From a bacterium (lineage in GTDB: Bacteria > Patescibacteriota > Minisyncoccia > UBA6257 > GWB1-50-10): 59,085 nt of DNA. The stretch lies in the NCBI GenBank assembly GCA_021815205.1, contig JAKAHD010000005.1, positions 1 to 59,085 of the forward strand. The letters run 5' to 3'. Positions 8,714 to 42,455 of this stretch are shown here, in pieces. The notes below the pieces were generated by a model. It was not told the DNA's origin, did not search any database, and saw nothing but the letters and a program-made list of their open reading frames with translations. The first letter of the stretch is position 1; each line of letters opens with the position of its first letter. Made by a program: the position numbers and the translations under genes.

Positions 8714-8729
8714 ATTCCCGCGTCTCTCT

Positions 8730-12085: not shown

Positions 12086-12127
12086 TTTTTGCTCGGACTT
12101 CACATTTGAGGCCCGAGCAGTATTTTT

Positions 12128-12258: not shown

Positions 12259-12272
12259 TTATCTCCGCCTCC

Positions 12273-13474: not shown

Positions 13475-13493
13475 ATTTCTATTGCGGTTCTTG

Positions 13494-13525
13494 CCCCACA
13501 CTAAACCGAAAGTTTTAGTGTGGGG
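13494..13525. repeat. CCCCACAC hairpin (core module of the nested repeat family)
   Basis: CCCCACACTAAA-CCGAAAGT-TTTAGTGTGGGG. Confidence 0.8.
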
Positions 13526-13727
13526 TCATCACAACTTGTTTCAATGGCAAGAATACGCATGATGGAAGTGTAAAGTTTAAAAATCAAAATGTAAAACAGT
13601 TAAAAATGAAAAAATTTTCATTTTGCATTGCAATTTTGCACTTTAATTTTTGCACTTTGAATTAATAAAGAATAATCATGGTTGCTGGATATTGAGTATC
13701 ATATACTATATACTAGATACTAATTCC

Positions 13728-14132
13728 ATGATCCAGCTATTCTACGTGTTCAGTGATTGGGGAATTCTCGCCCTCCGTCTCGCCCTCGGCGCGATCTTCA
13801 TTGCGCACGGGTGGCCGAAGGTGAAGGACTTAAGGGGCACCGCCGAAAAGTTCGCCTCGATGGGGTTTAAGCCCGCGAAATTCTGGGCGACGCTCGTGGC
13901 ATTCCTCGAGTTTGTGGGCGGCATTGCGCTCCTCTTCGGGTTCCTCACGCAGATCCTCGCGGCGCTTTTCGCGGCGCAGTTTATTGTGATTATCCTCAAA
14001 TTGAAACGGAAGAAGGGGCTCGTGGACGGCTATGAATTTGACCTTTTGATTCTCGCGGCGCTCCTTGCGCTTCTCGCGCTCGGCGGCGGGTCCGCGAGCG
14101 CCGACTCGTTCTTCAGACTCCTCCTTTACTAG
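13728..14132 (+). CDS. DoxX family membrane protein
   Basis: LRLALGAIFIAHGWPKV plus 4 TM segments. The ATG at 13728 is preferred over the ORF-track start at 13650. Confidence 0.75.
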   Translation: MIQLFYVFSDWGILALRLALGAIFIAHGWPKVKDLRGTAEKFASMGFKPAKFWATLVAFLEFVGGIALLFGFLTQILAALFAAQFIVIILKLKRKKGLVDGYEFDLLILAALLALLALGGGSASADSFFRLLLY

Positions 14133-14157
14133 AAATAATTTTCAAATGTCGTAATGC

Positions 14158-14257
14158 GTCATTCTGATCCTGCCTGCGCAGACAGGCGGAGCGGAGAATC
14201 TACGGTGTGAGTTTAGTTTAGAAATTCTTCTCCGCCTCATCGGCGGGTCAGAATGAC
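14158..14257. repeat. GTCATTCTGATC-type palindromic mini-element
   Basis: GTCATTCTGATC ... GGGTCAGAATGAC, with an internal CTGCCTGCGCAGACAGGCGG hairpin. Confidence 0.8.
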
Positions 14258-14268
14258 AAGACAGATAC

Positions 14269-15756: not shown

Positions 15757-15776
15757 TTGCGGTATACTAAGAAGCC

Positions 15777-16322
15777 ATGCAGGAATACGTAACCGACGCG
15801 ATCGTGCTCGCAACCTTCCCGCGGGGCGAGGCGGACCGCGTTGCGGATCTCTACACCAAAGATCTTGGAAGGATCGAGGCGCGAATGATCGGCGGAAGGA
15901 AACCGCTTTCGAAACTCGCGCCGCATCTTGATGTACTCGGGTTTGCGACCGTGCGGCTCGTTGAGAAGAACCAATTCACGCTTGTTGACGCAATGAGCGC
16001 CCCGCTCACGCCGAAATCGCGCGCGCCCGAACGTTTCGAAAAAATGCTCGAGATCGCATCACTTGTGCGGGCGCTTGCCCCCAAGGGCATTCGGGACGAA
16101 CGTCTCTGGGAGACGCTGCGGCGCGCGCAGACGGAAGGCGAACTTCGCGCCCTATCCGAGATTTTGGAGATTTTGGGATATAATGCAAGGCACGCATCGT
16201 GCGAAACCTGCGGTGAAACGCCGGTTGGATATTTTTTTCTCCCAACGCACGAATTTTTTTGCGCACGCTGCGGTTCAAAACTCCCCGAGAGTGAGGTAGT
16301 ATTATTGGAAGAGGTACAATAG
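15777..16322 (+). CDS. recO: DNA repair protein RecO (short form)
   Basis: N-terminal OB-like AIVLATFPRGEADRVADLYTKDLGRIEA, and a C-terminal CxxC...CxxC zinc motif (CETCG...CARCG). Confidence 0.7.
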   Translation: MQEYVTDAIVLATFPRGEADRVADLYTKDLGRIEARMIGGRKPLSKLAPHLDVLGFATVRLVEKNQFTLVDAMSAPLTPKSRAPERFEKMLEIASLVRALAPKGIRDERLWETLRRAQTEGELRALSEILEILGYNARHASCETCGETPVGYFFLPTHEFFCARCGSKLPESEVVLLEEVQ

Positions 16323-16324
16323 GT

Positions 16325-18226
16325 ATGACGCTTGAAGATATCGAAAAAAGAATAGCGGCGTTCAAGAAAGAGCGGTCGCCGAGAAGATCGAGAAAGAGAA
16401 GAGAGCACAATGAAACATTCCCGGTATTCCGCGGAAGGGAAGCGGCGCCGGAGGCGGACTATACTCCCATTATGCCGAGACGCGAGAAAAAGAATAATGA
16501 CGATTCGCCCCGGTGGCTCCGGCGAACGCTCCTTATCGGCACAAGCATCGGGCTTATCGTGATCGCATTGGGTGCGCTCTTTATCTTTACATACCTGAGC
16601 GAACCGCGCGGCGTGAGCGTTGACATCTACGCACCGAAGGATGTAACACGCGGCACGCCGTTCGAGGTTTCAGTGAACGTGACGAATAATGCCAATATGC
16701 CCCTCCAGAACGGGAGTATCACACTGAACCTTCCGGACGGGCTTGTTGCGTTGCATGCCTCCGATCCGAGTATCGTAAGCGAGAAGCTCGGCGGCGTGAA
16801 AAATGGGAGTCTTACGAAACGGACCTATACGCTTGTGCCGGTGGGGTCCGTGGGAGCGAGCAAGAGAATCACCGTCGTCTTCGCCTATGAAGTGGGCGCT
16901 GGATCGCGATTTGAGACCGACGCGAACCAAGATGTGACGGTGCATGATGCAGCAATCCGGATTACGGCGAAAACGCCGAACCAAGTTCTCGCCGGATCGA
17001 CATTTTCCTTCAACCTCTCGTATGCGAACGTCTCCGATTCCGATATTCAAAACGCATCACTCGAAGTCGACTACCCGAACGGCTTCAAGTTCGACTCCGC
17101 GTCGGTTGAGCCGTCCTCGTTCACGAATTACTGGAGCTTGGGAACGCTTGCCGCGCACTCGACGAGCACGATCACGATCACAGGGCGTTTCAGCGGCGCC
17201 TCACAATCGGGAATTTCGATTCCGGTCAAGGTTTCGACGACTATCGATGGGAAGGGCTACACAATTGCGGACGACACCGTGCAGATCACGCCTTCACCCT
17301 CACCCTTAGGACTCACAATCTTAATCAATGGACAGGAAGGGTATGTGGCGCGTATCGGCGACACGCTTCAGTACGCAGTGCGTTACCAAAATCTCAGCGG
17401 CATTGCGCTCTCGGATCTCACAATTCGTGTCATGCTTACGGGTGAGCTTCTCAACTTCTCGTCGCTCCATACGAACGGCGTGTACTCACCTTCGTCGCAG
17501 ACGATCACATGGTCTTCGGCGAACATGCCCGCGCTCGCGCTTGTCGGACCCGGGGGATCGGGCGAGGTTACTATTACCATCGGCCTAAAGAACCAGTTCA
17601 ATCTTCAGCGGTTGAACGACAAGAACTACTACGTGCGCTCGAACGTGCAGGCGAGTTCGCCTTCGGTGCCGTACTACCTCTCTTCGTCAAAGACGTCCGC
17701 GGAGGTGATCACCGACACGAAGGTCTCGGGCGCGATCTCGGTCGCGGCGCGCGCGTATTATCGCGACGCCTTGAGCCAGATCGCGAATGCGGGAAATCTT
17801 CCTCCCAAAGTGGGCCAGCCGACGCAGTTTACGATACACTGGCTCCTCTCGGATTATGCAAACGATACGAATACTATCAAAGTGAGCGCTCCACTCCCCG
17901 CAGGCGTGAGGTGGACGGGCGTCGTGAAATCGAACGGTGACACAAGCCCGCAGTACGACGCATCCTCAAACTCGGTCGTGTGGAGCATCTCGAAGATGAC
18001 GGCGAATCGCGGCGTGTTGACCGGCCCACTTGAGGCGGTCTTCCAGATTGAGGCGATGCCCGACGCGAGCGAAGCCGGCTCGTACGAGACGATTCTCGAA
18101 AAAACCCAAGTAACCGCGACTGACAGTTTTACGGGAGCAACGCTCACCAGTTCGGCGGATCCCCTCACAACCGCCCTGCCCTTGGACGACACGGTAAGTC
18201 CGGCACAGGGAATAGTAGTTCAGTAG
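16325..18226 (+). CDS. Membrane-anchored surface protein with repeated beta-rich domains
   Basis: One N-terminal TM (LLIGTSIGLIVIALGALFIF), then about 550 aa rich in T/S/V/N with recurring patterns such as ...ITITG..., ...VTITIGL... No catalytic motif. Confidence 0.6.
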   Translation: MTLEDIEKRIAAFKKERSPRRSRKRREHNETFPVFRGREAAPEADYTPIMPRREKKNNDDSPRWLRRTLLIGTSIGLIVIALGALFIFTYLSEPRGVSVDIYAPKDVTRGTPFEVSVNVTNNANMPLQNGSITLNLPDGLVALHASDPSIVSEKLGGVKNGSLTKRTYTLVPVGSVGASKRITVVFAYEVGAGSRFETDANQDVTVHDAAIRITAKTPNQVLAGSTFSFNLSYANVSDSDIQNASLEVDYPNGFKFDSASVEPSSFTNYWSLGTLAAHSTSTITITGRFSGASQSGISIPVKVSTTIDGKGYTIADDTVQITPSPSPLGLTILINGQEGYVARIGDTLQYAVRYQNLSGIALSDLTIRVMLTGELLNFSSLHTNGVYSPSSQTITWSSANMPALALVGPGGSGEVTITIGLKNQFNLQRLNDKNYYVRSNVQASSPSVPYYLSSSKTSAEVITDTKVSGAISVAARAYYRDALSQIANAGNLPPKVGQPTQFTIHWLLSDYANDTNTIKVSAPLPAGVRWTGVVKSNGDTSPQYDASSNSVVWSISKMTANRGVLTGPLEAVFQIEAMPDASEAGSYETILEKTQVTATDSFTGATLTSSADPLTTALPLDDTVSPAQGIVVQ

Positions 18227-18277
18227 AAGCAGACCACGCCACAAGAAACGCAGAAGAACGCAGAAACGCGGTCTGCG

Positions 18278-18446
18278 TATACCCCTCACATAAGTATTTA
18301 TACCATGAGAAGCTCACATGGGGGTAGGAAACCCCGCGTTCGCCACGGGATGAGGCATTCACCCCCCACGAAATGAGTGTGGGGGTTCATCCCCGTGGCA
18401 CGCCACGAGGTTTCCTGCTTCTCACGGGATTTATGTGAGGGGTATA
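18278..18446. repeat. Nested palindromic repeat (CCCGTGAGAAGC family), inverted orientation, with an extra outer arm
   Basis: The core 18303-18430 aligns to the reverse complement of 12128-12258, with substitutions. The outer arms are TATACCCCTCACATAA / TTATGTGAGGGGTATA. Confidence 0.85.
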
Positions 18447-18541
18447 TCTGCGTGCATTTCAGCGCCCGCCCGACCGAATGACGGTCATTCGGGCAGGTTA
18501 TCTGCTTCTATTTCTATAAAAAATACGCTATTCTAAATCTC

Positions 18542-19939
18542 ATGGATTCATTCGAAAAAATCGCGAGCTTGGCGAAGAGAAGGGGCTTTGTGTACCCTGG
18601 CTCCGAGATTTACGGCGGGCTTGCGGGTACGTGGGATTACGGTCCATTAGGCGTTGAACTGAAGAGAAATCTCAAGAACGAATTTTGGCGCTCGATGGTG
18701 CAGCTCCATGAGAATATCGTGGGGCTCGATGCCGCGATCGTTATGCACCCGAAGGTGTGGGAAGCGTCGGGGCATCTGGAATCCTTCTCCGACCCGCTCG
18801 TCGAGTGCAAGAAGTGCCACAGCCGATTTCGTACGGACGAAATCGGAATTTCCAATTTCCAATTTCCAATTTCCAAAGAGATAAAATGCGCGAAATGCGG
18901 GGCAAGCGACTGGACGGAGCCGAAGCGGTTCAACCTGATGGTCGAGACCTATCTCGGCGTAGTTGAAGGGGAAAAGACAAAGACGTATCTCCGCGGCGAG
19001 ATCACGCAGGGTGTGCACGTGAATTTCAAAAATGTGATGGATTCAACGCGGGTGAAGCTGCCGTTCGGTGTGGCACAGATCGGGAAAGCATTTCGGAATG
19101 AAATTACACCCGGAGGATTTACATTTCGTTCCCGCGAATTCGAACAAATGGAGCTTCAGTACTACGTCCGCCCCGACCTCAAGCAATCGATGGAAACGTT
19201 CGAATACTGGAAGAAAGAGCGGATGGACTGGTATGTTTCGCTCGGCATGAAAAAGGAAAATTTGCGGTTCAAAGAACACGCAAAAGACGAGCTCGCCCAT
19301 TATGCGTTGGCCGCGTTCGACATCGAATATAGCACGGAGGGCGAGTGGAAAGAAATGGAAGGCGTCCATCATCGCGGCGACTGGGATCTGAAGCGACATC
19401 AGGAATTCTCGAAAGAAGACATGACCTACTTCGACGAGGAAACGAAGGAACGGTATCTTCCTTATATTATTGAAACATCCGGAGGGGTGGACAGAGCCGC
19501 ACTTTTTTTCTTAATTGATGCATACACCGAGGAAAAAATTCCAAATTCCAAATTCCAAATTCCAAATAATTCCGAAATACAAAATTCAAATAACGAAAAC
19601 GGAACTCCGGATGCGAGGATCGTATTGAAACTCCATCCGCGCCTTGCGCCATACAAGGTTGCCGTTTTTCCACTTTTAGCTAACAAACCGGAGCTCGTCA
19701 AGGTAGCTAAAAAAATCAACGACGATTTGAAAAAAGATTTTATGGTCGCGTGGGACGATCGCGGCAATATCGGCAAACGCTACCGCGCGCAGGACGAAGC
19801 GGGTACGCCCTTCTGCATCACGGTTGATTTCGACAGCTTGGAGAATAACGATGTTACTATCCGCAACCGCGACACGATGCAACAAGAGCGCGTGAAAATT
19901 GCGGACCTTAAAGCGTATCTCGCGGAAAAGCTCGAATAA
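18542..19939 (+). CDS. glyQS: Glycyl-tRNA synthetase (class II, dimeric type)
   Basis: RRGFVYPGSEIYGGLAGTWDYGPLGVELKRN, FRNEITPGGFTFRSREFEQMELQYY and IETSGGVDR. Confidence 0.95.
   Translation: MDSFEKIASLAKRRGFVYPGSEIYGGLAGTWDYGPLGVELKRNLKNEFWRSMVQLHENIVGLDAAIVMHPKVWEASGHLESFSDPLVECKKCHSRFRTDEIGISNFQFPISKEIKCAKCGASDWTEPKRFNLMVETYLGVVEGEKTKTYLRGEITQGVHVNFKNVMDSTRVKLPFGVAQIGKAFRNEITPGGFTFRSREFEQMELQYYVRPDLKQSMETFEYWKKERMDWYVSLGMKKENLRFKEHAKDELAHYALAAFDIEYSTEGEWKEMEGVHHRGDWDLKRHQEFSKEDMTYFDEETKERYLPYIIETSGGVDRAALFFLIDAYTEEKIPNSKFQIPNNSEIQNSNNENGTPDARIVLKLHPRLAPYKVAVFPLLANKPELVKVAKKINDDLKKDFMVAWDDRGNIGKRYRAQDEAGTPFCITVDFDSLENNDVTIRNRDTMQQERVKIADLKAYLAEKLE
18847..18874 (+). repeat. In-frame AT-rich 7-nt array in glyQS
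   Basis: (AATTTCC)x4. Encodes ISNFQFPIS. Confidence 0.95.
19536..19595 (+). repeat. In-frame AT-rich 7-nt array in glyQS with a degenerate tail
   Basis: (AAATTCC)x4, then AAATAATTCCGAAATACAAAATTCAAATAAC. Encodes IPNSKFQIPNNSEIQNSNN. Confidence 0.95.
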
Positions 19940-19946
19940 CCCCCTT

Positions 19947-19998
19947 CTATCGAAGTTCAACTTCACTATTTCGAAATAGCGAGGTTGAACTTCGATAG
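19947..19998 (+). terminator. Long hairpin after glyQS
   Basis: CTATCGAAGTTCAAC...GTTGAACTTCGATAG (15-bp stem). Its arms recur separately at 26976 and 28128. Confidence 0.6.
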
Positions 19999-20063
19999 AG
20001 CCCCTTAGAATACCAGTAAAATAAGGGGCTTTGAACCCTCGCATGCGAAGGTATGCGGGGATA

Positions 20064-20093
20064 TTGACTTTTTGTTAGCACCTGTGGTATAAT
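20064..20093 (+). promoter_or_regulatory. Sigma-70-type promoter with extended -10 (cassette copy 1)
   Basis: TTGACT (20064-20069), 18-nt spacer, TGgTATAAT (20085-20093). Identical to 25516-25545. Confidence 0.7.
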
Positions 20094-20099
20094 AGAGCC

Positions 20100-20396
20100 A
20101 GTAAATTACCAACCAGGTACTGGACAGTTCTTCTTCTTAATCTGGTTACTCGCCGAGATTGGTACCGTAGGTGCTTATTTCAGCGAGTAACCGGATACGT
20201 ATGGTTACTCGAAATTGAATGAGGTCGGGAGAGCATTAGAATGGCGCCTGACCGATTGAAAAAAGTCATCGAGCTCCACCAAGAGCTCGACTCAATGATC
20301 TTCAGCCCATAAATAACTGAAACGGCTGGAGAGGAGATTTTAGTAATCATATTGTCCGCTTCCACGGACGCAAAACATATGGGAAGGAGAATTAAA
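20100..20396 (+). ncRNA. ~295-nt structured leader / candidate cis-regulatory RNA, copy 1
   Basis: Identical to copy 2 over 213 nt plus 75 nt. Stems: CCAGTA/TACTGG, TCTGGTTACTCGC/GCGAGTAACCGGA (13 bp), GGTCGGG/CCTGACC, TCGAGCTC/GAGCTCGA, CAGCC/GGCTG, GTCCG/CGGAC. Ends at RBS GGAAGGAG. Confidence 0.5.
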
Positions 20397-20831
20397 ATGA
20401 AAGTTGTAGAAAATTCGATCGGAACGCGTCGTGCGTTCACGATCACCGTCGGGACCCAAGAAGGGTACGGCGACTCCGCAAAAAAACACACGCTTGCGGA
20501 GGTCGTTGGTGCGGCAAAAAGCTGGATGATGCAGAAAGCCGCATCCGGCAAGTCGTTTGTCACCGGTTTTTTCACCTCTGGCGAAGTTGTCTACGCCTGG
20601 CCGGAGGGAGAGGGAAAGGCAGGCGGCGGCAGTGAGCCGAACGCTACTTTCCAAGGAGAGGTTACGCCTCTCTACGGTGCTCACCTCACCGATGAAGAGG
20701 TGAAGGTTTTGTTAAATGATCTCGCATCTCACCTCGGTGAGAAGCTGGGTCAAACTCGCGTGTACGTAAGGTACCGCGAGGAGGTCTGGATTCTCCAGGC
20801 GGAGGATCAGACCACGCCAACAGGAAATTAA
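20397..20831 (+). CDS. Hypothetical protein P1 (144 aa)
   Basis: RBS GGAAGGAG lies 7 nt upstream of the ATG. No recognisable motif. The ORF track starts earlier (20352), inside the leader. Confidence 0.6.
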   Translation: MKVVENSIGTRRAFTITVGTQEGYGDSAKKHTLAEVVGAAKSWMMQKAASGKSFVTGFFTSGEVVYAWPEGEGKAGGGSEPNATFQGEVTPLYGAHLTDEEVKVLLNDLASHLGEKLGQTRVYVRYREEVWILQAEDQTTPTGN

Positions 20832-20884
20832 TAAAAACGAGGTGTGATTTTATATCACACCTCAAAATTTAAGGAGGTGTCGAA

Positions 20885-22093
20885 ATGAAAGTTTTAGTAT
20901 TTGATCCTTTTGTTTCCGTTCGGGAAACAGGAGGGTGTACGTTCGAGCCGGATATGGGCTGGTGGACGCAAATAAACGATCCAACCCAAGAAAAGCTTGG
21001 ACGTGCATTAGTTGATTCTCGGGACGCCCTCTACATCCCGACGCTTCAAAAGACGGGTGAGCCGGTTGATGTGGCAATTGTTGAGTTCTTTAAGCAGCAA
21101 GCCGCTCAAATTGGGTTATCTGATCTGGTGTGTGCAAGCGGAATGTGGGTGCTTTCGACGACAGGGGATGTTCAAACCGAAACTATCTGGATCGCGCGCG
21201 GAAAGTGCAGTGATCTGGGTAGGATGAGGAAAGTTGCTCATAATATAAAAAATTTCGCGAATCAGGACTGTGTCGCCTGGGAAGAAAAAGGCGAGATGCA
21301 GTTTACCGGTTCGGAAAAGGAGGAAAAAATGGAAAGAATTTGGATTGTGCCGCGGAATGATCTTGAAGCGGTTGAAATAATAAATTTGCTTCATGATGCC
21401 GGCGAGATGGTTATTGTTTCATCTCAACCGTGGGGAGCAAGTTGGGAAAAGCTTGAGGACTCCGTTGCCCAGGAAGTTGAAAAACTTTTAGCGCAACATC
21501 CCCAAGCCAAGGTAATCGGGGTTGAATTTGCCGGCACGGCTCGTTGGAACGGGAGAACGATCGATCATCATTTTTACAGTGATGCTGATCGTTCGAGCGA
21601 GAAGTCCTCGATTGAACAAATTGCAGAGGAACTTGGTGTTCCGCTCAACAGGTATCAACAACTTGTCGCGATAAATGACAAGTGGTGGATACCGGGGCTT
21701 CAAAAAGCGGGCGCAACAAAAGGAGAAGTTGAAACCATAAGAATCTCCGATCGTTGCGCGCAAGGGATTACCCCGGACGAAGAAGCGCAGGCAGTCCGGG
21801 ATATTCAAGCGGCCGAATGGCACGGGAGAAAGTGTGTTGTAATATGCAGAAAACACACCTCGTGTTACACCGACCGTCTGTTCGGTACCTACGACGAGCT
21901 GATCGTCGCCGCACCCGATAAGTGGATTTACTTCGGTTCACGGCACCATGAAGTTAACAAGCTGATTCATGATGCGAACCTTGGAAATCCGCGCGATTGG
22001 GTAGGCGGCAGCAAAGAGTCCGGATTTGCTGGATTTATATCTCCCAGTCCGGATGCCCAGAAAAAGATTTCGGATTTTTTCTGGAAAAGTTAA
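20885..22093 (+). CDS. Hypothetical protein P2 (402 aa) with an IDHH motif
   Basis: RBS AAGGAGG. The C-terminal half has KVIGVEFAG...GRTIDHHFY, reminiscent of DHH motif III. Otherwise unassigned. Confidence 0.6.
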   Translation: MKVLVFDPFVSVRETGGCTFEPDMGWWTQINDPTQEKLGRALVDSRDALYIPTLQKTGEPVDVAIVEFFKQQAAQIGLSDLVCASGMWVLSTTGDVQTETIWIARGKCSDLGRMRKVAHNIKNFANQDCVAWEEKGEMQFTGSEKEEKMERIWIVPRNDLEAVEIINLLHDAGEMVIVSSQPWGASWEKLEDSVAQEVEKLLAQHPQAKVIGVEFAGTARWNGRTIDHHFYSDADRSSEKSSIEQIAEELGVPLNRYQQLVAINDKWWIPGLQKAGATKGEVETIRISDRCAQGITPDEEAQAVRDIQAAEWHGRKCVVICRKHTSCYTDRLFGTYDELIVAAPDKWIYFGSRHHEVNKLIHDANLGNPRDWVGGSKESGFAGFISPSPDAQKKISDFFWKS

Positions 22094-22108
22094 TAATTAT
22101 TTCGAGTT

Positions 22109-22137
22109 AGGGAGGACTCATTTATAAAAACCTCCCT
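22109..22137 (+). terminator. Hairpin after P2
   Basis: AGGGAGG-15 nt-CCTCCCT, followed by CTGTTTTCG. Confidence 0.5.
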
Positions 22138-22269
22138 CTGTTTTCGCCAAAGGCGAACTGATGAGTTTTCCGATCTGATATATCGGCAAAACGAAACAGA
22201 TAACAATTACATTCCGCTATATGCGGACCGGTCCAGCGGAACTGGAAACATTTAAAGAAAGGAGTGTCT

Positions 22270-23181
22270 ATGTGGGCACCGTTAGCAAGGTTCTTTAAGA
22301 ATTTATTTTCCCCAAAAACCCCTCCCCCTCTCAAAAAAGAAAAAAGTGAGGGTGAGAAGAAAGTTCATTTTCTTTTGCCGGAGACGGCTGAGGAATATGA
22401 AAATTTCGTTCAGCAAGAGCGAGAAAAAATTTTTGCTCAGCAGAATAAAGGGAAAGAAATGGCTCGCCAGTTCTTAGAAGAGTCAAAGAAGGAGTTCGAA
22501 AGCAACTCCAGAAAAGAGGAAAGCCTTAAAGACAGGATTAAAGAAGAAAAAGATCCTGCCGAAAAAGAGATTTTAGAAAGATGGCTCGCAAGAGTTATTT
22601 CCGCTAATGTCTCGGCAAGTTCCTATATAAAGGAACTTGAAGAGGAGATAAAAAATCAACCCGCAGTTGAGGTTGATGAAAAGAAATTGGGAGAAAAAGA
22701 GAAGTCTCTTCGGAGACAAGAGCTCCAAAAGATAGTTTCGAATGGAGCTGTAGCAGGGAGGTCATATTCATTTCCTGTAGTTCAAGAAGAAAGGCTTCTC
22801 GTCCTATATCGTGAAAAATTCTTTTTGGTTGTAGTAGAATATCAACCAATTAAAGAAAGCAAGGTTGATATTTGTACAAAGTGTGGCTCGGAAAAACTTT
22901 TGAGCCATCAGTATGGGATGGGAGGAGCGTGTTATTCTGACTTTTGTCCAAAATGCAGTCCACAAACCATGGTGGATAAAAGTTGGAACAGAACAATATG
23001 TGGGAAAGCAACCTATTCGGTCACTGTCGGATATGAAAAAACCGGGTATGTTGTTTGGGGAACCGATTCTCTGAAACAATTCAGAGACGACGAACTTCGT
23101 GTCGTTTCTGAATACAATAAAACGGGGAAGATTGAAGAGGGGAAAATATTTTCCTCCGGCCACCATGATAAGCCGTGGTAA
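22270..23181 (+). CDS. Hypothetical protein P3: K/E-rich coiled-coil N-half, Cys-rich zinc-ribbon-like C-half
   Basis: AAAGGAG lies 5 nt upstream of the ATG at 22270. CTKCGSEK...CYSDFCPKCSPQ. The ORF track starts at GTG 22264. Confidence 0.6.
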   Translation: MWAPLARFFKNLFSPKTPPPLKKEKSEGEKKVHFLLPETAEEYENFVQQEREKIFAQQNKGKEMARQFLEESKKEFESNSRKEESLKDRIKEEKDPAEKEILERWLARVISANVSASSYIKELEEEIKNQPAVEVDEKKLGEKEKSLRRQELQKIVSNGAVAGRSYSFPVVQEERLLVLYREKFFLVVVEYQPIKESKVDICTKCGSEKLLSHQYGMGGACYSDFCPKCSPQTMVDKSWNRTICGKATYSVTVGYEKTGYVVWGTDSLKQFRDDELRVVSEYNKTGKIEEGKIFSSGHHDKPW

Positions 23182-23208
23182 GCCAGTTTAGTAAAAATTA
23201 TTTTTATA

Positions 23209-23248
23209 CCCGGGAACGAGTAACATCGTTTCCCGGGTCAATTTTTTA
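23209..23248. terminator. Shared cassette terminator, copy 1 (also serves the convergent minus-strand gene)
   Basis: CCCGGGAA-13 nt-TTCCCGGG plus a T-run. About 43 bp are shared with 26762-26806. Confidence 0.7.
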
Positions 23249-25321
23249 TAGGTTCTGTTTTACTTCCGCGAGGTATTCTGGGAATCGAGAATCAATGTCT
23301 TCAAACGACTCGCCGCAATATTGTTTCATCAACGTCTTTTCTTCGTTGCGGCGATTCTCTATTTCGGAGATAATCTGTTTGAATTCAGCATCAACCTCTC
23401 CATTTTCCCGCATCTTTTGAATATTTTTTTGGATGACTTCCTTTTTCTTTAGAAATTGTTCCGCCGCATTCCTATCAAACGCAAAGCGTTCTTGTTCAAC
23501 TTTTTCGTCCGCTATGACATATTCCACCGTGTCCCACGACCCTTGCCGCTCTCCGCTTACCTGGGCGCCTCGTCTCCATCCGTCGCCTCCGAGTGTGCTA
23601 CTGTAGCGTATCATGCCATAGTGAGTGGTTTTATTCTCTTTGTAGAGAATGGATCCGGTTTTAAGGTCGAGGATAGTTGTAACATCCGATTCGAATCCGG
23701 AGGTATAACCCCGATTTGCCGTTCCTACATCTCTTCTCTTGTTTTGATATATAACATACCGATCGGCAATAATTTCAGACGGTTTTTCTTTTGCATACTC
23801 CTCTCTGTCAGTTTTTTGATTTTGAGCAACCCATTTTATATATTGTTCGTTATTCTTCTCGGCTTTTTCCGCGGCGCGACCCCGCATTTCCTTATCCACT
23901 TCATTCCATAGGATTTCAGCCCGATCTTTTTCTACCAAATTAATTACGGAATCCTTTTGTATTTGAATAATAGGCGCCTTCTCGGGGACCGAAACGGTTT
24001 CGATCGGAATATGATATCCTCCAGTGAACAGCCTTTGTGTGGCGGTGGTGACGAGAGAAACATACTTCTTGTCCATGAATTCTTTGATACGCCCCTCGAG
24101 TTTTTGCTGGAAGTCGGGTGTCATTACTTTTTGCATCAATGCTTCCACGATTTCCCGGTTCTTGCCGCCCCGAAGTTTATTGGCTGTTTCTACGAATGGC
24201 AGAACGATGCCATTCCCGATATCATCCGCATACTGACCCCGTTCCTTTTCATTAAGGATCTCGAGGCCGGTGAAATTTACACGAAATCCAAACACACTTT
24301 TAAGCTCCGGGTGCCCCAGTACTATTTGAGAAGCGTCATGATACCAACCGGGTTGATATTCTTCTGAAACGGCATCAAGAAATTTTTCTGCATTGATTGT
24401 TACTGAAGGATCTTGTAAAAGGAGCGAATACACATTTACTAAGTGCAGGGGATACCCGGAGTCGTCTCTCCTTGTTATTTCTTTTGAGAATTCTACATTC
24501 TTCTTAAGAACAAACGAATCGGAGTTAAGGGGCGTATATTCTCTTTCCAATTCTTTTAGGTCGTCTATAGAATGCAATAGTAATCCATCTTTAGTAACCT
24601 TGACTGTATCCGGGAATTTAATAGGCAATTCTTTTTGTACCGCATCCTCAAAGATTACTTCATAGTATGCGTTAAAATTTTCTCCATCCCCCTCTTTTAT
24701 GACAGGTTTTATAAGAACCGTTTCTTCTGTGTGGTATGGTGTGTTAATGGTAAACGTAAACCTTCCCTCCCCAAAAATCTCGGGACGTGTCTGGGAAACG
24801 ATTTCTTTTTTGATCATCGCCTCTATTTTTGGAGCGACAAACTCCGCGGATTTTTCGGCAAGAATGCGCTTGGCGTCTTCGGAAAAACACCATTTCTTGC
24901 TCGCAAGTCCTTTCTCACCGCGTTTCGTTGAGAGGGACATAACACTCTCATTGTGTTCAATTTTTGTTTCTATTTCGTTCGCCTGGGCTACACGTCTGCG
25001 ACGATCACTGGCCTCTCTGAGCGCATAATCGGATATGTGGAAGAAAATCCGGTCTTTTGAAGAGGGCTCCTTTAAAAAACCAAACCCTCTTTCTTTGTTA
25101 AATCGTTCAATAGTATAAGGTCCAGTGGCATCGGGGTACGCACTTTTGAGATTGATTTCTTTTTCCGCTTCGCTATGAAGCTTGGCGTCTTCTTCTTCGA
25201 TAAGCGACGTATCAAAACGAACTATTTCATGGACACTCTCGCGAGCATCGTTTTCATTAAAATCCTCCTCTTTATTCTCTTCTGGCATCCCCGTTACGGA
25301 ATCGAGTTTTCCCATATCCAT
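23246..25321 (-). CDS. Hypothetical 691-aa protein P4 with a cold-shock-like N-terminal segment
   Basis: YTIERFNKERGFGFLKEPSSKDRIFFHISD resembles the CSD RNP motifs. The remaining ~570 aa have no recognisable motif. Confidence 0.6.
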   Translation of the reverse strand: MDMGKLDSVTGMPEENKEEDFNENDARESVHEIVRFDTSLIEEEDAKLHSEAEKEINLKSAYPDATGPYTIERFNKERGFGFLKEPSSKDRIFFHISDYALREASDRRRRVAQANEIETKIEHNESVMSLSTKRGEKGLASKKWCFSEDAKRILAEKSAEFVAPKIEAMIKKEIVSQTRPEIFGEGRFTFTINTPYHTEETVLIKPVIKEGDGENFNAYYEVIFEDAVQKELPIKFPDTVKVTKDGLLLHSIDDLKELEREYTPLNSDSFVLKKNVEFSKEITRRDDSGYPLHLVNVYSLLLQDPSVTINAEKFLDAVSEEYQPGWYHDASQIVLGHPELKSVFGFRVNFTGLEILNEKERGQYADDIGNGIVLPFVETANKLRGGKNREIVEALMQKVMTPDFQQKLEGRIKEFMDKKYVSLVTTATQRLFTGGYHIPIETVSVPEKAPIIQIQKDSVINLVEKDRAEILWNEVDKEMRGRAAEKAEKNNEQYIKWVAQNQKTDREEYAKEKPSEIIADRYVIYQNKRRDVGTANRGYTSGFESDVTTILDLKTGSILYKENKTTHYGMIRYSSTLGGDGWRRGAQVSGERQGSWDTVEYVIADEKVEQERFAFDRNAAEQFLKKKEVIQKNIQKMRENGEVDAEFKQIISEIENRRNEEKTLMKQYCGESFEDIDSRFPEYLAEVKQNL

Positions 25322-25515
25322 ATTCTAGTTTTTTCAGAATTTCTGCACAAGGAATGAAGTAGTTATATTTGTGGTGAGAAAAAATAGGGGAAACTTTACC
25401 GCTTCGGCGGGGTAAGGTATGATTCGCTCATGGAAAAAATAAAACGAGTATTTCGACGTCCGACATCGGAAGATTAGTCAAAAATCCGCATTTCATGTGG
25501 GTTTTTAGCAATATA

Positions 25516-25545
25516 TTGACTTTTTGTTAGCACCTGTGGTATAAT
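25516..25545 (+). promoter_or_regulatory. Sigma-70-type promoter with extended -10 (cassette copy 2)
   Basis: Identical to 20064-20093. Confidence 0.7.
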
Positions 25546-25551
25546 AGAGCC

Positions 25552-25844
25552 AGTAAATTACCAACCAGGTACTGGACAGTTCTTCTTCTTAATCTGGTTA
25601 CTCGCCGAGATTGGTACCGTAGGTGCTTATTTCAGCGAGTAACCGGATACGTATGGTTACTCGAAATTGAATGAGGTCGGGAGAGCATTAGAATGGCGCC
25701 TGACCGATTGAAAAAAGTCATCGAGTCCGCTGTGGCTCGACTCAATGATCTTCAGCCCATAAATAACTGAAACGGCTGGAGAGGAGATTTTAGTAATCAT
25801 ATTGTCCGCTCCCACGGACGAAAAATATTTGGGAAGGAGAATAA
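25552..25844 (+). ncRNA. ~293-nt structured leader, copy 2
   Basis: Same as copy 1, except the tip of one hairpin is replaced (25726-25735, TCCGCTGTGG, versus 20274-20285, CTCCACCAAGAG). One T/C change lies in a hairpin loop, and small indels lie near the RBS. Confidence 0.5.
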
Positions 25845-26756
25845 ATGAAACTTTGGTCGTTCGAATTTTCACGACGATCGTCTTTACCTCTTGATCTTTT
25901 TATCAAGAGAAAAGACGGTAGGGAAGTTCCCATTAGCACAGAAAGGATTATCCTTTCTGTGCAGTGGAAGAGGGGAGAGGAAGAAATCACTCAAATTTTT
26001 GTTAATTTGGAGGGAGTTGAGGTTAATTATGATGAGTATCTTGTTGAGAGAAACTCACCTACAGAACACAACCAGCTCCATCCTTGGCATAAGGATAGCG
26101 GAGAGAGTATGTGGAATCTCCGCGCCGAAATATTTAATTACTCAACTTCGAGAGAGGAAGTTGAGCATATTCAAGAGAAAGTGATAAAAACCCTTACCCC
26201 ACCTCTTTATATAGGTGCCGGCGGTGAAAACGGCACGCTCCATATCTTAAGACGGTATGAGGGCATGATATTCCACCACCGGGGTGATATTGTCTCGAAG
26301 GAGATTGAGAAACTAGCCCAACAGGCAGTTAAGGCCTTCGCAGATCAATATCACTTTGATATCGCGAAAGCGATATCAAACATTTTCTTTGATGGCCAAG
26401 AGGAAGGAACACTTCTGTACATCAAGGAGAAAGAGATCGAGCAAAAATTCCTTTTGCTCGATGTCGAGAACGCTATAAAAAAGGCCATAGACGAGAAAAA
26501 GATAGTATGGCCCGATTTTAGCGATTGGGAGGGGGATTCATTTCCTCATATCCACTTTGATGTGGATGTGAAAGGAAAAATTTATCATGGGAAACTTTCC
26601 TATGACGATGGATACGTTTCTACCGTCATAGGGAGTGTTCCAAACAACCCCCTCGTTGGATTTCTTTCCGCGGAAGAGGGGGACGAGGCCCAGTTTGAAG
26701 GTCCAATTAAAGACTGGACCTACATGCAGGGCCCGTCATTCGAATATAATTTTTAG
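25845..26756 (+). CDS. Hypothetical protein P5 (303 aa)
   Basis: RBS GGAAGGAG. No recognisable motif. Unrelated to P1. Confidence 0.6.
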   Translation: MKLWSFEFSRRSSLPLDLFIKRKDGREVPISTERIILSVQWKRGEEEITQIFVNLEGVEVNYDEYLVERNSPTEHNQLHPWHKDSGESMWNLRAEIFNYSTSREEVEHIQEKVIKTLTPPLYIGAGGENGTLHILRRYEGMIFHHRGDIVSKEIEKLAQQAVKAFADQYHFDIAKAISNIFFDGQEEGTLLYIKEKEIEQKFLLLDVENAIKKAIDEKKIVWPDFSDWEGDSFPHIHFDVDVKGKIYHGKLSYDDGYVSTVIGSVPNNPLVGFLSAEEGDEAQFEGPIKDWTYMQGPSFEYNF

Positions 26757-26763
26757 GTAAAAA

Positions 26764-26805
26764 CCCGGGAACGAGTAACATCGTCTCCCGGGTACATTAT
26801 TTTAT
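26764..26805 (+). terminator. Shared cassette terminator, copy 2
   Basis: CCCGGGA-15 nt-TCCCGGG plus a T-rich tail. Confidence 0.65.
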
Positions 26806-26822
26806 AAACACACAGCACACCA

Positions 26823-26850
26823 AGACCGCTATGCTATAGCATAGCGGTCT
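26823..26850. terminator. 28-nt perfect palindrome plus T-run
   Basis: AGACCGCTATGCTA|TAGCATAGCGGTCT followed by ATTTTTAT. Its core is shared with the murD palindrome at 7367. Confidence 0.7.
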
Positions 26851-27053
26851 ATTTTTATCCGCCTTCGCAGAAGATCATAGGTGTAAACCCGTGAATGAAT
26901 GCGAGGCGGCAATAGGGATAAATTGCTCCGTTTATCTTCCTTCGGGTTCAGCGGAGAAATTGAGGTAATGTCCTCCTATCGAAGTTCAACTTCACTACCT
27001 ACCCACATTAAGGGGTTCGCATAAGTCCAAAAATCGTGGTATAATGGGGCAAG

Positions 27054-27314
27054 ATGACAATTCAGGCGTTTATAAAAAAAAGACCGTATCTCGTCTGGCA
27101 TACGAAAAATTACACCCGTCTTTCCGAAGAGGCCGTCGTGGAAGCGACACTGAACTACGGAGATTTTGACGATGTGAAGCAATTAATTGAAATACTCGGG
27201 ATCAAGAAAGTGGCTGCGATTTTCAGGCGGCACACAAGCTCCCGGAAGATGAGAACCAATTATCCGCCGAAGCTACAACATTATTTCCACCTTTATTTTC
27301 ACGCGCATGCATAA
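27054..27314 (+). CDS. Small protein, putative partner/antitoxin of the downstream AbiEii-like gene
   Basis: 86 aa. Overlaps the next gene by 8 nt (ATGCATAA). A TGGTATAAT -10 element lies about 15 nt upstream. Confidence 0.5.
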   Translation: MTIQAFIKKRPYLVWHTKNYTRLSEEAVVEATLNYGDFDDVKQLIEILGIKKVAAIFRRHTSSRKMRTNYPPKLQHYFHLYFHAHA

Positions 27315-27918
27315 GGAAGTTCTTACGCCCGCGCAGATTGCCCTTCTGCCGCTTGTGAAAAAATTCTCCTCCCATTTCGGGCTGGCGGGCGGCACCGCGA
27401 TTGCATTGCACATCGGGCATCGCGAGTCGGTTGATTTTAATCTCTTTGCGCTCAAGGAGTTCAGGAACTTCGAGGCGAGAAAAAAGATAGTGTCGTTCGG
27501 AAAGATCCAGCGCACGGTTACCGACGAGAAAGACCAGTTTACGGTGGTTGTAAGGGGAGTACGCCTCACGTTGCTTCATTATCCTTTTCCCGTGCGTTTC
27601 CCGGAACGATTTGAGAGCGTTATCAGGATACCCGATCTTCTAACGCTTGCGGCGATGAAAGCGTACGCGCTGGGACGGCGCGCCAAGTGGAAAGATTATG
27701 TTGATCTCTATTATATCGCAACGCGGTACGGCAGTCTTACCCCGATTATAAAAAAGGCGAAAGCGATATTCAAAACCGAATTCAACGAGAAGAATTTCCG
27801 CGTGCAGCTCGCATACTTTAAGGATATTGATTACAGCGAGAAGGTTATATATATGAAAGGATTCGCCGTTCCGGATGCCGCAATACGGAAAGAGCTCACT
27901 CGCTTGAGCATTGAGTAG
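27307..27918 (+). CDS. AbiEii/DUF1814-like nucleotidyltransferase (type IV TA toxin family)
   Basis: GLAGGTAIALHIGHRESVDFNLF and MKAYALGRRAKWKDYVDLYYI match family hallmarks recalled from memory. Confidence 0.65.
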   Translation: MHKEVLTPAQIALLPLVKKFSSHFGLAGGTAIALHIGHRESVDFNLFALKEFRNFEARKKIVSFGKIQRTVTDEKDQFTVVVRGVRLTLLHYPFPVRFPERFESVIRIPDLLTLAAMKAYALGRRAKWKDYVDLYYIATRYGSLTPIIKKAKAIFKTEFNEKNFRVQLAYFKDIDYSEKVIYMKGFAVPDAAIRKELTRLSIE

Positions 27919-28168: not shown

Positions 28169-29473
28169 ATGACAAGAATCCGGGGGTGCGGTATGATGCT
28201 CCCTATGGAGAAAGTAACGCGCGTAAAGTTGAAGAACGAGCTTCGGGTGATCCTTGTGCCGCAGGCGGGGAGCTTTGCGACGACCGTGATGGTGATGGTC
28301 GAGGCGGGTTCAAAGTACGAGACGCGGGAGAAGAACGGCATCTCGCACTTTTTGGAACACATGTGCTTCAAGGGTACGACAAAGCGCCCGCGCCCGATTG
28401 ATATCGCCTCCGAGCTCGATGCTTTAGGCGCGCAGTACAACGCCTTCACGGGCCAGGAATTTACCGCGTACTATGCGAAGGTGAAACGCGAGCATTTCGG
28501 CGACGCATTGAACGTTGTCTCCGATTTATATTTGAATCCGGTTTTCGACCCCACGGAGATCGAAAAAGAAAAGGGAGTGATTATTGAGGAGCTCAACATG
28601 TACGAGGACACGCCGGCGCGGCGCGTAGGGGAGCTCTTTATGGAACTTGTTTACGGCGATCAGCCCGCAGGATGGAATATTGGAGGAAAAAAAGAAGTGA
28701 TTAAGAAAATTACACGAAACGATTTTTTGGAATACCGCGCGCAACACTATCTCCCGCAAGCGACGATCGTGGTCGTTGCGGGCGGCTTCAATCCGAAAGG
28801 CGCCATCCGGGCGATCGAGAGACATTTTTCGGTGCTCCCGAACGGCACGAAGGGCGTGAAGGTGAGGGTGAAAGAATCGCAAAAGAAACCGCAAGAACTC
28901 GTGCACTTCAAGGAGTCCGACCAGACGCATCTCGTCTTGGGCTTCAGGGCATGCGATGCGCACGACGAGCGGCGGTTCGCGCTCGAGGTTCTGGCGGAGA
29001 TCTTGGGCGGCGGGATGAGCTCACGGCTTTTTCAGAGTATTCGCGAAGGGCTCGGCGCCGCGTACTATGTGCGCGCGGACACGGATCTCTACACCGATCA
29101 CGGACTCTTTATGATGGCGGCGGGCGCAGAGCACTCGAAGCTGGAGCTTGTGATCAAAACCGCGCTCAAAGAATTCTCAAAAATGAAGGAAGAAAAAGTG
29201 AGCGCCGCGGATTTGAAGAAAGCGAAGGAACATCTCCTAGGGAATCTTTTCTTATCGCTCGAGACCTCTGACGAACTCGCGAATTATTATGCGCTCGAGG
29301 AGGTGATGGGCATGAAGCTCTCGACGCCCGAGGCGCTCGCGCGGAGGATCCAGGCCGTTACGGCGGATGAGGTGCGGCATGCGGCGCGGGCATTCTTCAA
29401 GAATGACCGTCTGAACCTCTCAATTATAGGGCCGTTTCGGAAGAAGAGCTTTCTTGATATACTGAGGGTGTAA
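28169..29473 (+). CDS. M16 (pitrilysin/insulinase) family zinc peptidase
   Basis: GISHFLEHMCFKGT (HxxEH). The start could be one of the internal ATGs near 28193. Confidence 0.85.
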   Translation: MTRIRGCGMMLPMEKVTRVKLKNELRVILVPQAGSFATTVMVMVEAGSKYETREKNGISHFLEHMCFKGTTKRPRPIDIASELDALGAQYNAFTGQEFTAYYAKVKREHFGDALNVVSDLYLNPVFDPTEIEKEKGVIIEELNMYEDTPARRVGELFMELVYGDQPAGWNIGGKKEVIKKITRNDFLEYRAQHYLPQATIVVVAGGFNPKGAIRAIERHFSVLPNGTKGVKVRVKESQKKPQELVHFKESDQTHLVLGFRACDAHDERRFALEVLAEILGGGMSSRLFQSIREGLGAAYYVRADTDLYTDHGLFMMAAGAEHSKLELVIKTALKEFSKMKEEKVSAADLKKAKEHLLGNLFLSLETSDELANYYALEEVMGMKLSTPEALARRIQAVTADEVRHAARAFFKNDRLNLSIIGPFRKKSFLDILRV

Positions 29474-32760: not shown

Positions 32761-32812
32761 AACAACCCTCTCTTCTTGTCTTATTGATATTGATTTTTAA
32801 AATAACGGTTTT

Positions 32813-32882
32813 ATCCCGTGAGAAGCAGAAAACCCCGTGGCGAACGCGGGGTTTACCACCCCGTATGGGCTTCTCACGGGAT
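32813..32882. repeat. Nested palindromic repeat (CCCGTGAGAAGC family), short form
   Basis: Equals the long form at 12128 minus the segment between its two CCCGTGG repeats. Confidence 0.85.
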
Positions 32883-32919
32883 TTATATTACGGAAATTTC
32901 GTGTATACTGCAAGTAATT

Positions 32920-42139: not shown

Positions 42140-42161
42140 ATTGTTTTAGACGCGAATAAAT

Positions 42162-42443: not shown

Positions 42444-42455
42444 CGAATCAATTTT

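Follow-up and report, generated by a model that had tools for sequence, protein, structure and literature searches.

Several described systems keep a message silent by folding it back on its own ribosome-binding site. In the SAM-III (SMK box) riboswitch for S-adenosylmethionine (SAM) and in the hok and tisB toxin mRNAs, a complementary upstream stretch locks the ribosome-binding site, and expression is off by default. Other systems bear on how genes are framed: integron platforms place a constant 5' expression module (Pc/attI) ahead of swappable, unrelated cargo, with an imperfect hairpin (attC) at the 3' end of each unit, and the early leader of gene 0.3 in the phages T3 and T7 joins strong host-type promoters to a long leader with an RNase III hairpin and then, in T3, to a SAM lyase. 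Here we describe an element, R, that invites comparison with all of them, in a 59,085-nt contig (JAKAHD010000005.1 of assembly GCA_021815205.1; the whole stretch is called the window below) from a bacterium of the Patescibacteriota. R consists of a promoter and a leader of about 300 nt and occurs twice behind the glycyl-tRNA synthetase (GlyRS) gene glyS: copy R1 precedes the genes P1, P2 and P3, copy R2 precedes P5, and P4 lies between the two units on the other strand. We put at roughly 55% the probability that R is a portable promoter with a translation-silencing leader, that R and a terminator frame exchangeable accessory genes, and that the two copies are recombination partners.

The cargo of R, like that of the SAM-III/SMK, hok and tisB messages, is plausibly harmful if freely made, being SAM-lyase-like in the window and a small hydrophobic protein in a related locus (L068; loci compared with the window carry such handles). 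Unlike those messages, R gives no sequence or model match to them, and its locking helix would span about 250 nt and enclose some seven other helices. With integrons it shares the constant 5' expression module, the swappable unrelated cargo and the imperfect 3' hairpin of each unit, whereas every unit has its own promoter, and each 3' hairpin, GC-rich, 31 nt long and followed by a U-run, would be a terminator rather than an attC site of 57-141 nt, with no GTTRRRY core on reading. Neither an IntI integrase beside attI/Pc nor attC sites turned up in the domain scans of P1-P5 and the reading of the 3' elements, and exchange at R is best explained by homologous recombination. The T3/T7 leader is matched in the sigma-70-type promoter, the long leader with a nearly perfect duplex of about 24 bp and the SAM-lyase-fold gene, whereas R sits in a non-phage context, without PHROG matches and without relatives in IMG/VR. 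The SAM-I (S-box) riboswitch, RF00162, precedes a P1 homologue in another locus, L023, in tandem and after a consensus promoter; the window leader differs from it in having no S-box match and no terminator-type expression platform. For the cargo, the closest comparison is with type III-B CRISPR systems that are associated with CorA, where NrN and a lyase are alternative enzymes for degrading SAM-AMP, a phage lyase being a candidate anti-CRISPR (PMC10600005, PMC12255297). The lyase has its match in the fold of P1, and NrN in a domain of P2, and, unlike in those systems, the window has the lyase-like and the NrN-domain protein in one predicted operon.

The two copies of R are direct repeats. A first-pass annotation, made from the letters alone, had described them as about 335 bp long and matching over 213 nt and then over 75 nt, and the repeat comparison, BLAST and reading agree with it: 20061-20273 is 100% identical to 25513-25725, the second exact stretch (by reading) is 20286-20360, and the part 3' of the 213-nt tract (20285-20395 vs 25735-25845) is 95% identical. 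Over 340 nt (20061-20400 vs 25513-25848), BLAST gives 96.5% identity, and it finds no third copy in the window. While the first 213 nt are identical, the last 127 nt are about 10% diverged, with 8 mismatches and 4 indels, and the differences are all located in a hairpin tip, a loop or a single-stranded linker. The tip CTCCACCAAGAG of R1 is replaced by TCCGCTGTGG in R2 within a TCGAG/CTCGA stem that is kept, just as the annotation had read it; one loop base differs (20361, T/C), three base changes fall within 20371-20379 in the linker 5' of the ribosome-binding site, and a 2-nt indel lies between that site and the ATG. Because the central tract is identical while the 3' part and the terminators have diverged, the pattern suggests a recent exchange or conversion on top of an older duplication.

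The strong extended -10 promoter that the annotation had placed in each copy is there: R2, like R1, has TTGACT, an 18-nt spacer with TG, and TATAAT, matching the consensus at 11 of 12 positions, and both sites thus show the hexamers, the 16-18 nt spacing and the extended -10 TG of sigma-70 promoters. The pattern TTGAC-N16-19-TATAAT occurs at these two sites only in the 59 kb, with 0.09 occurrences expected. We infer that transcription of the R modules actually starts from the predicted promoter.

From the likely start, about 7 nt past the -10 element, to the ATG, the leader would span about 300 nt, and its predicted fold is exceptionally stable. The minimum free energy (MFE) is -119.2 kcal/mol for copy 1 and -115.2 kcal/mol for copy 2 against a mean of about -76 for shuffled sequences (z -8.8 and -7.3), and none of 100 shuffles was equally stable. 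The fold contains at least eight helices, somewhat more than the six or more stems drawn in the first-pass annotation; it starts with a 5' hairpin, and a 17-bp helix closes a junction holding four hairpins. Around the domain, a predicted closing helix of 13-14 bp pairs UUCUUCUUCUU with the ribosome-binding site GGGAAGGAGAA about 250 nt away. The unpaired probability of this site is 0.002 in R1 and 0.0015 in R2, corresponding to 99.8% paired in the ensemble; none of 150 dinucleotide shuffles of the leader reaches such low accessibility, just 2.7% falling below 0.05, and opening the site by constraint costs 11.2 kcal/mol. The start codon is largely unpaired. In both copies the pairing goes well beyond chance, as in leaders that sequester the Shine-Dalgarno (SD) sequence. 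The modelling thus supports a strongly structured, cis-acting RNA that hides the ribosome-binding site, and we infer that the leader would repress translation in vivo.

How the structure might act is narrowed by what the scans did not find. A scan for an intrinsic terminator (hairpin and U-run, + strand) gave none inside the leader, so any control would work via translation or stability and not via premature termination. Two exclusive folds of similar energy, the mark of a riboswitch or attenuator, were not found in the leader; a switch built on the triple GGUUACUCG / CGAGUAACC / GGUUACUCG was rejected, since its alternative, in which CGAGUAACC pairs with the downstream GGUUACUCG, is 15.4 kcal/mol worse with the ribosome-binding site still paired. 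The CATAT/ATATG pairing proposed in the first-pass annotation does not appear in the MFE fold and is not kept in copy 2, which reads ATTTG. The Rfam scan that the annotation had suggested returned no family for the leader: Rfam 15 on the whole window at the gathering score gave tRNAs only, and the region 19950-20450 at E <= 10 gave just spurious miRNA and LhrC matches far below threshold. Of the annotation's idea of a cis-regulatory RNA, the structured leader that hides its ribosome-binding site is supported, and the riboswitch or attenuator part, with no Rfam match, internal terminator or freeing fold, is not.

The two units also end alike, as had been noticed, in putative hairpin terminators that are related rather than identical, differing at 4 of 40 positions. 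By eye, the 12-bp stem of T1 is followed by CAATTTTTTAT and the same stem in T2 by ACATTATTTTAT, a weaker U-run; a simple terminator scan listed neither of them and reported a second strong hairpin terminator at 26823-26850. All features are collected in Table 1.

Table 1. Positions in the window of R, the predicted elements of its leader, the genes and terminators that it frames and the repeat around the island
Feature	Position	Strand	Basis
Module R1: promoter and ~300-nt leader, 5' of P1	20061-20396	+	Repeat comparison, BLAST, fold z -8.8
R1 promoter: TTGACT, 18-nt spacer with TG, TATAAT	20064-20093	+	11/12 consensus match, extended -10
Anti-SD UUCUUCUUCUU, 5' strand of the predicted long-range closing helix	20128-20138	+	Pairing probabilities 0.91-1.00 with 20381-20391
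Nearly perfect hairpin of ~24 bp, directly 3' of the anti-SD/closing helix strand	20142-20194	+	MFE and centroid folds
Sub-motif AAAUUGAAUGAGGUC-hairpin-GACCGAUUGAA	20213-20262	+	
Hairpin with tip differing between copies, stem kept: 8 bp in R1, 7 bp in R2 (25721-25740)	20269-20290	+	Reading and folds
Small hairpin GUCCG-CUUCCA-CGGAC, 11 nt 5' of the ribosome-binding site	20354-20369	+	Fold
P1 ribosome-binding site GGGAAGGAGAA, sequestered in the predicted fold	20381-20391	+	Mean unpaired probability 0.002
Module R2, 5' of P5: promoter 25516-25545, anti-SD 25580-25590, ribosome-binding site 25831-25841	25513-25844	+	Repeat comparison, fold, promoter scan
T1: GC-rich hairpin of 12 bp containing one bulge, each strand having a U-run, common to P3 (+) and P4 (-)	23208-23247	.	
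T2: 90% identical to T1	26763-26802	+	Repeat comparison
P1, 144 aa, SAM lyase / SAM-AMP lyase-like (PII) fold	20397-20831	+	AF2 model, Foldseek, profile
P2, 402 aa; residues 147-384 an NrN-type DHH phosphodiesterase domain, after 146 N-terminal residues	20885-22093	+	PADLOC, PDB match
P3, 303 aa: K/E-rich N-terminal half, C-terminal Cys4 zinc-ribbon-like segment	22270-23181	+	Open reading frame list, L166 gene call
P4, 691 aa, near-orphan, N-terminal cold-shock-like domain	23246-25321	-	Pfam CSD E 2.4e-5, below curated cut-off
P5, 303 aa	25845-26756	+	
glyS-end repeat, copy 1: last 15 nt of glyS and left arm of the downstream hairpin	19922-19968	+	Repeat family D11
glyS-end repeat, copy 2: displaced remnant at the right island edge	26951-26997	+	

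Other assemblies bear on whether R is a place where genes come and go. In L042 (GCA_027460785.1, 35.5 kb), the flanks are 100% identical to the window over about 17 kb, the 5,452 bp are absent, and the order is GlyRS, R, P5; compared with window 12393-20402, its sole differences are the 8 mismatches and 4 indels that separate R2 from R1. The counterpart is L166 (MEGAHIT k141, 5 samples), which equals window 20133-25653, that is, the unique segment with exactly 141 nt of repeat at each end. The segment itself comprises the 3' part of the leader, P1-P4 and the second promoter. L043 begins exactly 141 nt 5' of the first R2-specific base, and Logan contigs begin 31-32 nt 5' of copy-specific bases; since contigs break or start inside the repeat in all these cases, R is the branch point of every assembly graph. 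Contigs with P1 and with P5 co-occur in one sample (SRR13299515). Three cases agree with these data: a tandem arrangement, a chromosome lacking the segment together with a 5,452-bp circle that carries one R, or a mixed population; in every case, R is the homology tract where the segment joins. On the reading preferred below, the presence or absence of the segment would be a real population variant. The first-pass annotation had expected recombination between the copies to delete 5.45 kb: the junction it predicted exists in L042 and the segment stands alone in L166, though neither can be told from an assembler path. Its other suggestion, a conserved 5' module of an exchangeable cassette, gains support from the L042 junction and from the different cargo of two related loci, L002 and L068.

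The cargo is of more than one kind, and the genes behind the copies, as the annotation had stated, are unrelated. P1, P3 and P5 lack mutual similarity, and the pairs P1/P5 and P3/P5 were rejected as hidden paralogues; two gene starts were corrected, P1 to 20397 and P3 probably to an ATG at 22270. The AlphaFold2 (AF2) model of P1 is confident (predicted local distance difference test, pLDDT, 93.5), and its best Foldseek matches are a phage SAM lyase (6zm9; E 2.7e-6, TM 0.66/0.72), 9lqd and 9gad, the last being the SAM-AMP lyase of a Clostridium botulinum CorA type III CRISPR system. Against the PDB, a profile of the P1 family (38 members) matched chains of SAM lyase and SAM-AMP lyase and no others (E 0.025-0.06). 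With its PII-like ferredoxin fold matching solved lyases and a conserved glutamate, P1 resembles these enzymes and is a putative SAM/SAM-AMP-lyase-like protein. In the alignment with the C. botulinum lyase, the family's invariant E80 lies no more than one residue from the GEE stretch, which by our own count, allowing for the tag, contains the catalytic E71 named in PMC12255297.

P2 matched the PADLOC model DHH_CorA at 1.3e-30, its residues 147-384 align with residues 8-238 of 260 of the NrN structure 9lq9 (E 2e-21), and it carries the DHH motif (TIDHHF), all of which mark a predicted NrN domain. A CorA-associated type III CRISPR locus, with cas10/cmr and CorA beside NrN or lyase, was not found: no cas or CorA gene is among those called on L042, from the identical strain, and the neighbours are housekeeping genes and an AbiE pair. 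P3 has a weak match to an S27ae-type zinc ribbon. For P4, which has no close homologue, three clear relatives were found among 1.8 billion representatives, and these few and distant sequences are too few for an alignment from which to build a model. P5 has one homologue, P0049, at 55% identity (BLASTP), and its AF2 model is poor (pLDDT 58.6).

These genes lie in an island with distinct edges. The order is glyS (18542-19939), R1, P1, P2, P3, T1, P4 on the - strand, R2, P5, T2, the second terminator, an AbiE toxin-antitoxin pair (27054-27918; the toxin is an AbiEii nucleotidyltransferase, Pfam AbiEii 8.6e-12) and a gene for an M16 peptidase (28169-29473). In a related genome, L001, whose P1 is 84% identical, GlyRS adjoins the M16 gene and P1-P2 are located elsewhere, and the stretch from glyS to M16 is therefore an insertion in the genome of the window. 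A 47-nt direct repeat, 77% identical, brackets the entire island, and by reading both of its copies finish AEKL(E/R)-stop in the glyS frame; the AbiE pair lies at the right island edge, past the displaced copy. The bracketing looks like an attachment-site duplication, and scans with Pfam, NCBIfam and PHROGs detected no integrase among the island proteins P1-P5. The intergenic region of L001 is too diverged to tell which of the two copies is the original. P3, P4 and P5 have a G+C content of 40-43% against 50-55% in the flanks, and the tetranucleotide distance of the island from its flanks is not exceptional. The sources name the P1 homologues as Pacebacteria and Nomurabacteria proteins, and the neighbours of the island are housekeeping genes, which fits a Patescibacteria genome.

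The comparison with relatives covered 47 P1 homologues and about 35 loci carrying them. About 20 of 27 loci have unusual structure in the 250 nt 5' of the P1 homologue (z -3 to -11.7), and the leader sequences differ between lineages. That the whole leader might be one conserved family, an idea suggested by MAFFT alignments, was dropped after permutation tests. The sole significant part of the leader is the small hairpin with the ribosome-binding site, whose similarity to L027 1891-1930 has z 9.4; the match sits 5' of a short open reading frame (ORF) that is itself 5' of a P1 homologue. In the 1.1 Mb compared, the pattern UGAAUGAGG...CCGAUUG around a hairpin with a variable apex occurs only in R1/R2, the L002 family and L068. 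The flanks of this sub-motif are invariant and its apex varies, and MAFFT could not align the long hairpin of the window with the short ones.

Beyond sequence similarity, the layout of R recurs with P5. In L040, a P5 orthologue has a 333-nt leader with a pyrimidine stretch and then a long hairpin in the matching position, which keeps a UACUC/GAGUA core with 8 double changes relative to R, and 3' of the gene stands a hairpin, ACCCGGGGCGAGAAATCGTTTCCGGGT, with a U-run, by eye closely similar to T1/T2. Because this orthologue has a like leader layout and a related terminator, R, P5 and the terminator look like an old unit. Apart from this, a gene for a 1,419-aa repeat protein, at a distance of 2 kb from the P5 orthologue, has an rve-type transposase gene on each side, the two being identical (L040:3385-3684 / 8626-8925, a 300-nt exact repeat); the block looks like a composite transposon.

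Leaders shared by different genes were also found elsewhere. L002 and L068 agree in their TatD and leucyl-tRNA synthetase (LeuRS) flanks and in promoter and leader (82-88% identity), and their similarity breaks at the start codon: the cargo is a P1 homologue with a KH-domain protein (1.6 kb) in L002 and a 68-aa hydrophobic ORF (0.3 kb) in L068. Their leader alignment contains three compensatory pairs, and no pair is broken by substitution. In L012, an 80-nt module with ribosome-binding site, ATG and first codons, 76-84% identical, precedes three successive different genes, and in L010 and L007 leader modules are likewise repeated 5' of different genes. To judge by these sequences, one leader common to unrelated accessory genes is a recurrent arrangement around the P1 gene family. 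A pattern of promoter and initial transcript, seen in the window, L001, L002 and L040, was set aside as generic, with at least 119 stretches matching, largely from Clostridia-type metagenome-assembled genomes; among the listed matches about one-third have 21-22-nt leaders, and L068 came from the same scan. In IMG/VR, neither the 3' hairpin pattern nor the P1 profile had a match.

One of the P1 homologues stands behind a known regulator. In L023 (2378-3335), two tandem SAM-I aptamers (2448-2575, 45.4 bits; 2676-2805, 41.4 bits) stand behind a promoter that matches the consensus perfectly (TTGACA-17-TATAAT with TG), and after them come about 480 nt of further structured leader and the P1 homologue; the sole ORF of at least 60 aa in between is a doubtful 61-aa one starting with TTG. 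By eye, a hairpin and a U-run lie 3' of each aptamer, and the consensus scan listed neither. Since tandem SAM-I aptamers precede this homologue, at least one member of the P1 family appears to be under the control of a metabolite-sensing RNA. Genes behind SAM-I switches are normally shut off when SAM is high, and such an off-type switch before a putative SAM-consuming enzyme is unexpected; because of this oddity, the family may act on SAM-AMP or have another SAM-linked role.

Other surroundings of P1 homologues are of interest in their own right. Several stand beside Csx3-domain proteins and pairs of bpMoxR AAA+ and VWA proteins (L169:2063-3948, L005:1911-4734, L168:5930-6933); Csx3 is a CRISPR-associated family of ring nucleases. 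The 402-aa Csx3-domain protein of L169 was considered as a relative of P2 and rejected, the two being unrelated. A TrmB-family regulator is divergently upstream in L010, L012 and L168. In L010, a hammerhead type III match (6230-6294; 41.4 bits and E 1e-5, short of the gathering score, 48.5) falls in the long leader that belongs to a gene two genes downstream of the P1 homologue, and in L025/L026 a core of CUGAUGAG...CGAAA was seen by eye just 5' of the P1 homologue, where Rfam did not report one.

Under the reading that we prefer, R would work as follows. Its near-consensus extended -10 sigma-70 promoter would drive a multi-hairpin 5' untranslated region (UTR) of about 300 nt, in which the pyrimidine stretch UUCUUCUUCUU, about 30 nt from the 5' end, would pair with the ribosome-binding site 250 nt downstream, close the whole domain and keep translation off by default. 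R and a matching hairpin terminator would frame two unrelated units, P1-P2-P3 and P5, in a variable island at the 3' end of glyS; the 213 identical bases common to both copies would let R1 and R2 recombine, with 5,452 bp gained or lost and the gene behind the glyS-proximal promoter swapped. Given the SAM-lyase fold of P1 and the NrN domain of P2, the cargo plausibly needs tight control. Some trigger would have to relieve the block, and we can conjecture a ligand related to SAM, a double-strand RNase that would cleave the long hairpin, or an RNA-binding protein, for instance P4 with its cold-shock-like domain, which as a single-strand RNA binder could act on the pyrimidine stretch.

Several observations weigh against this reading. 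The promoter and the leader fold are both predictions, and no plausible alternative fold that would free the ribosome-binding site, and so provide a route of release, was found. Sequestration of the site is strong in the window and L001 and weak in L040 (unpaired 0.52) and L002 (0.42). By permutation, the similarity of the whole leader to those in L001, L002, L040 and L010 is not significant (z 0.2-3.1). In searches against 170 loci with blastn and nhmmer, the leader was found only in the identical strain and, as a 38-nt piece, in L027, too few sequences for a covariation test. Moreover, any assembler could yield L042, L166 and L043 from a 213-nt exact repeat, and the deletion variant is not proven.

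Some of these points bear on the alternatives as well. The leader could be a metabolite riboswitch of a new class, its likeliest ligand being SAM or a derivative (SAM-AMP, methylthioadenosine or S-adenosylhomocysteine), which would open or lock the anti-SD/SD helix via the multi-helix junction. The large and very stable multi-junction fold, the predicted control at the ribosome-binding site, the SAM-lyase fold of P1 and the NrN domain of P2 would all suit such a switch, as would the P1 homologue of L023, behind a perfect promoter and two SAM-I aptamers, and the invariant flanks and variable apex of the sub-motif UGAAUGAGG-hairpin-CCGAUUG. We nevertheless find a riboswitch unlikely: Rfam has no match even at E <= 10, no competing fold was found within energetic reach, alignable homologues are too few for covariation, and the leader changes fast between lineages, unlike typical aptamers; besides, R also drives P5, and a related leader a small hydrophobic ORF, neither with a known SAM link. 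We rate as rather unlikely the opposite view, in which the duplication has no regulatory meaning and is a by-product of unequal crossing-over, gene conversion or the integration of a 5.45-kb circle by a single crossover, the leader being merely a stable 5' UTR or insulator behind a constitutive promoter. The contrast between the 213 identical nucleotides and the diverged 3' 127 nt and terminators is what such a history would leave, and no full-leader homologue was found; on the other hand, it does not account for the extreme stability of the fold and the specific pairing of the ribosome-binding site, for copy-specific changes that spare the helices, or for the independent recurrence of leader sharing in L002/L068, L012, L010 and L007.

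The remaining alternatives concern the arrangement and the nature of the repeat. The tandem arrangement may be an assembly path, with a chromosome reading glyS-R-P5, as in the assembled contig L042, and the 5.45-kb segment with one R being a separate circular or otherwise located element. The k-mers used are shorter than the 213-nt exact repeat, into which the MEGAHIT contigs reach exactly 141 nt before they break; the same samples hold P1 and P5 contigs, and the perfect inverted repeat of 127 nt at the window ends may be a signature of the assembler. Against this, both junctions are bridged by at least one assembler, no gene for replication, an integrase or a transposase can be recognised in the segment, and P1-P2 are chromosomal in the related genome L001, which together leave us regarding the path as distinctly improbable; it would in any case concern the arrangement only and not the nature of R. 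That R is a small mobile or dispersed repeat, of the kind of miniature inverted-repeat transposable elements (MITE) or repetitive extragenic palindromes (REP), or a free-standing non-coding RNA gene that lies before genes by chance, recalls the other dispersed hairpin repeats in the window (families D8, D10, D12, I6 and I7) and the palindromic modules repeated in several intergenic regions of L010. Yet R occurs just twice in 59 kb and in the same orientation, both copies extend from the promoter exactly to the ribosome-binding site and ATG, terminal inverted repeats and target duplications are missing, and no terminator separates R from its gene; we hold this origin to be very improbable.

A portable promoter and silencing leader would have implications beyond this locus. 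To our knowledge, gene regulation in bacteria of the candidate phyla radiation has hardly been studied by experiment, and R provides a regulatory RNA that is concrete and can be tested, a consensus promoter with a 300-nt leader and a predicted hidden ribosome-binding site, that is reused before unrelated accessory genes and at a recombination breakpoint. Its cargo ties R to the newly described SAM-AMP immune signal; an operon of a lyase-like and an NrN protein without CRISPR genes nearby hints at counter-defence or a SAM-related role, which the tandem SAM-I riboswitches of L023 could help to define. The leaders shared in several genomes suggest a general wiring of accessory genes in small genomes. 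Should the leader instead be no more than a stable UTR, and the variant no more than an assembly path, R would be an ordinary repeat. A wider claim, that these leaders form a fast-evolving, modular Patescibacteria family that senses a SAM-derived metabolite or an infection cue, releases the locked ribosome-binding site and is moved with its terminator among accessory or counter-defence genes, we consider doubtful; if it were true, one RNA switch would jointly control swappable cargo such as the pair of SAM-AMP lyase and NrN.

The window contains repeats unrelated to R. Its ends form a perfect 127-nt inverted terminal repeat (1-127 / 58959-59085); 127 is a common maximum k-mer of SPAdes-type assemblers, and the repeat may be an assembly signature rather than biology. 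Inverted repeats, perfect or nearly so, form a chain from 40604 to 52561 (40604/42162, 132 nt; 42290/43813, 154 nt; 44096/45617, 122 nt; 45733/52348, 214 nt). They enclose ORFs of 447-561 aa and a block of 6.4 kb, with tRNA genes adjoining, and could represent segments that are insertion-sequence-like or invertible, or else assembly paths induced by the repeats. A GC-rich hairpin element, CCCGTGGCGAACGCGGGG..., of 50-70 nt and 90-100% identity, occurs in both orientations (12124-12262, 18321-18430 and 32809-32900), one copy lying just 5' of glyS, and has the appearance of an intergenic repeat of the REP or MITE kind. A 7-nt unit, AATTTCC or AAATTTG on either strand, forms scattered runs at 9818-9860, 18831-18877, 19534-19566, 34932-34975, 35237-35277, 35504-35554, 35817-35885 and 47968-48000; two of them, within glyS, encode FQFPISNFQ-like inserts, three units preserving the reading frame.

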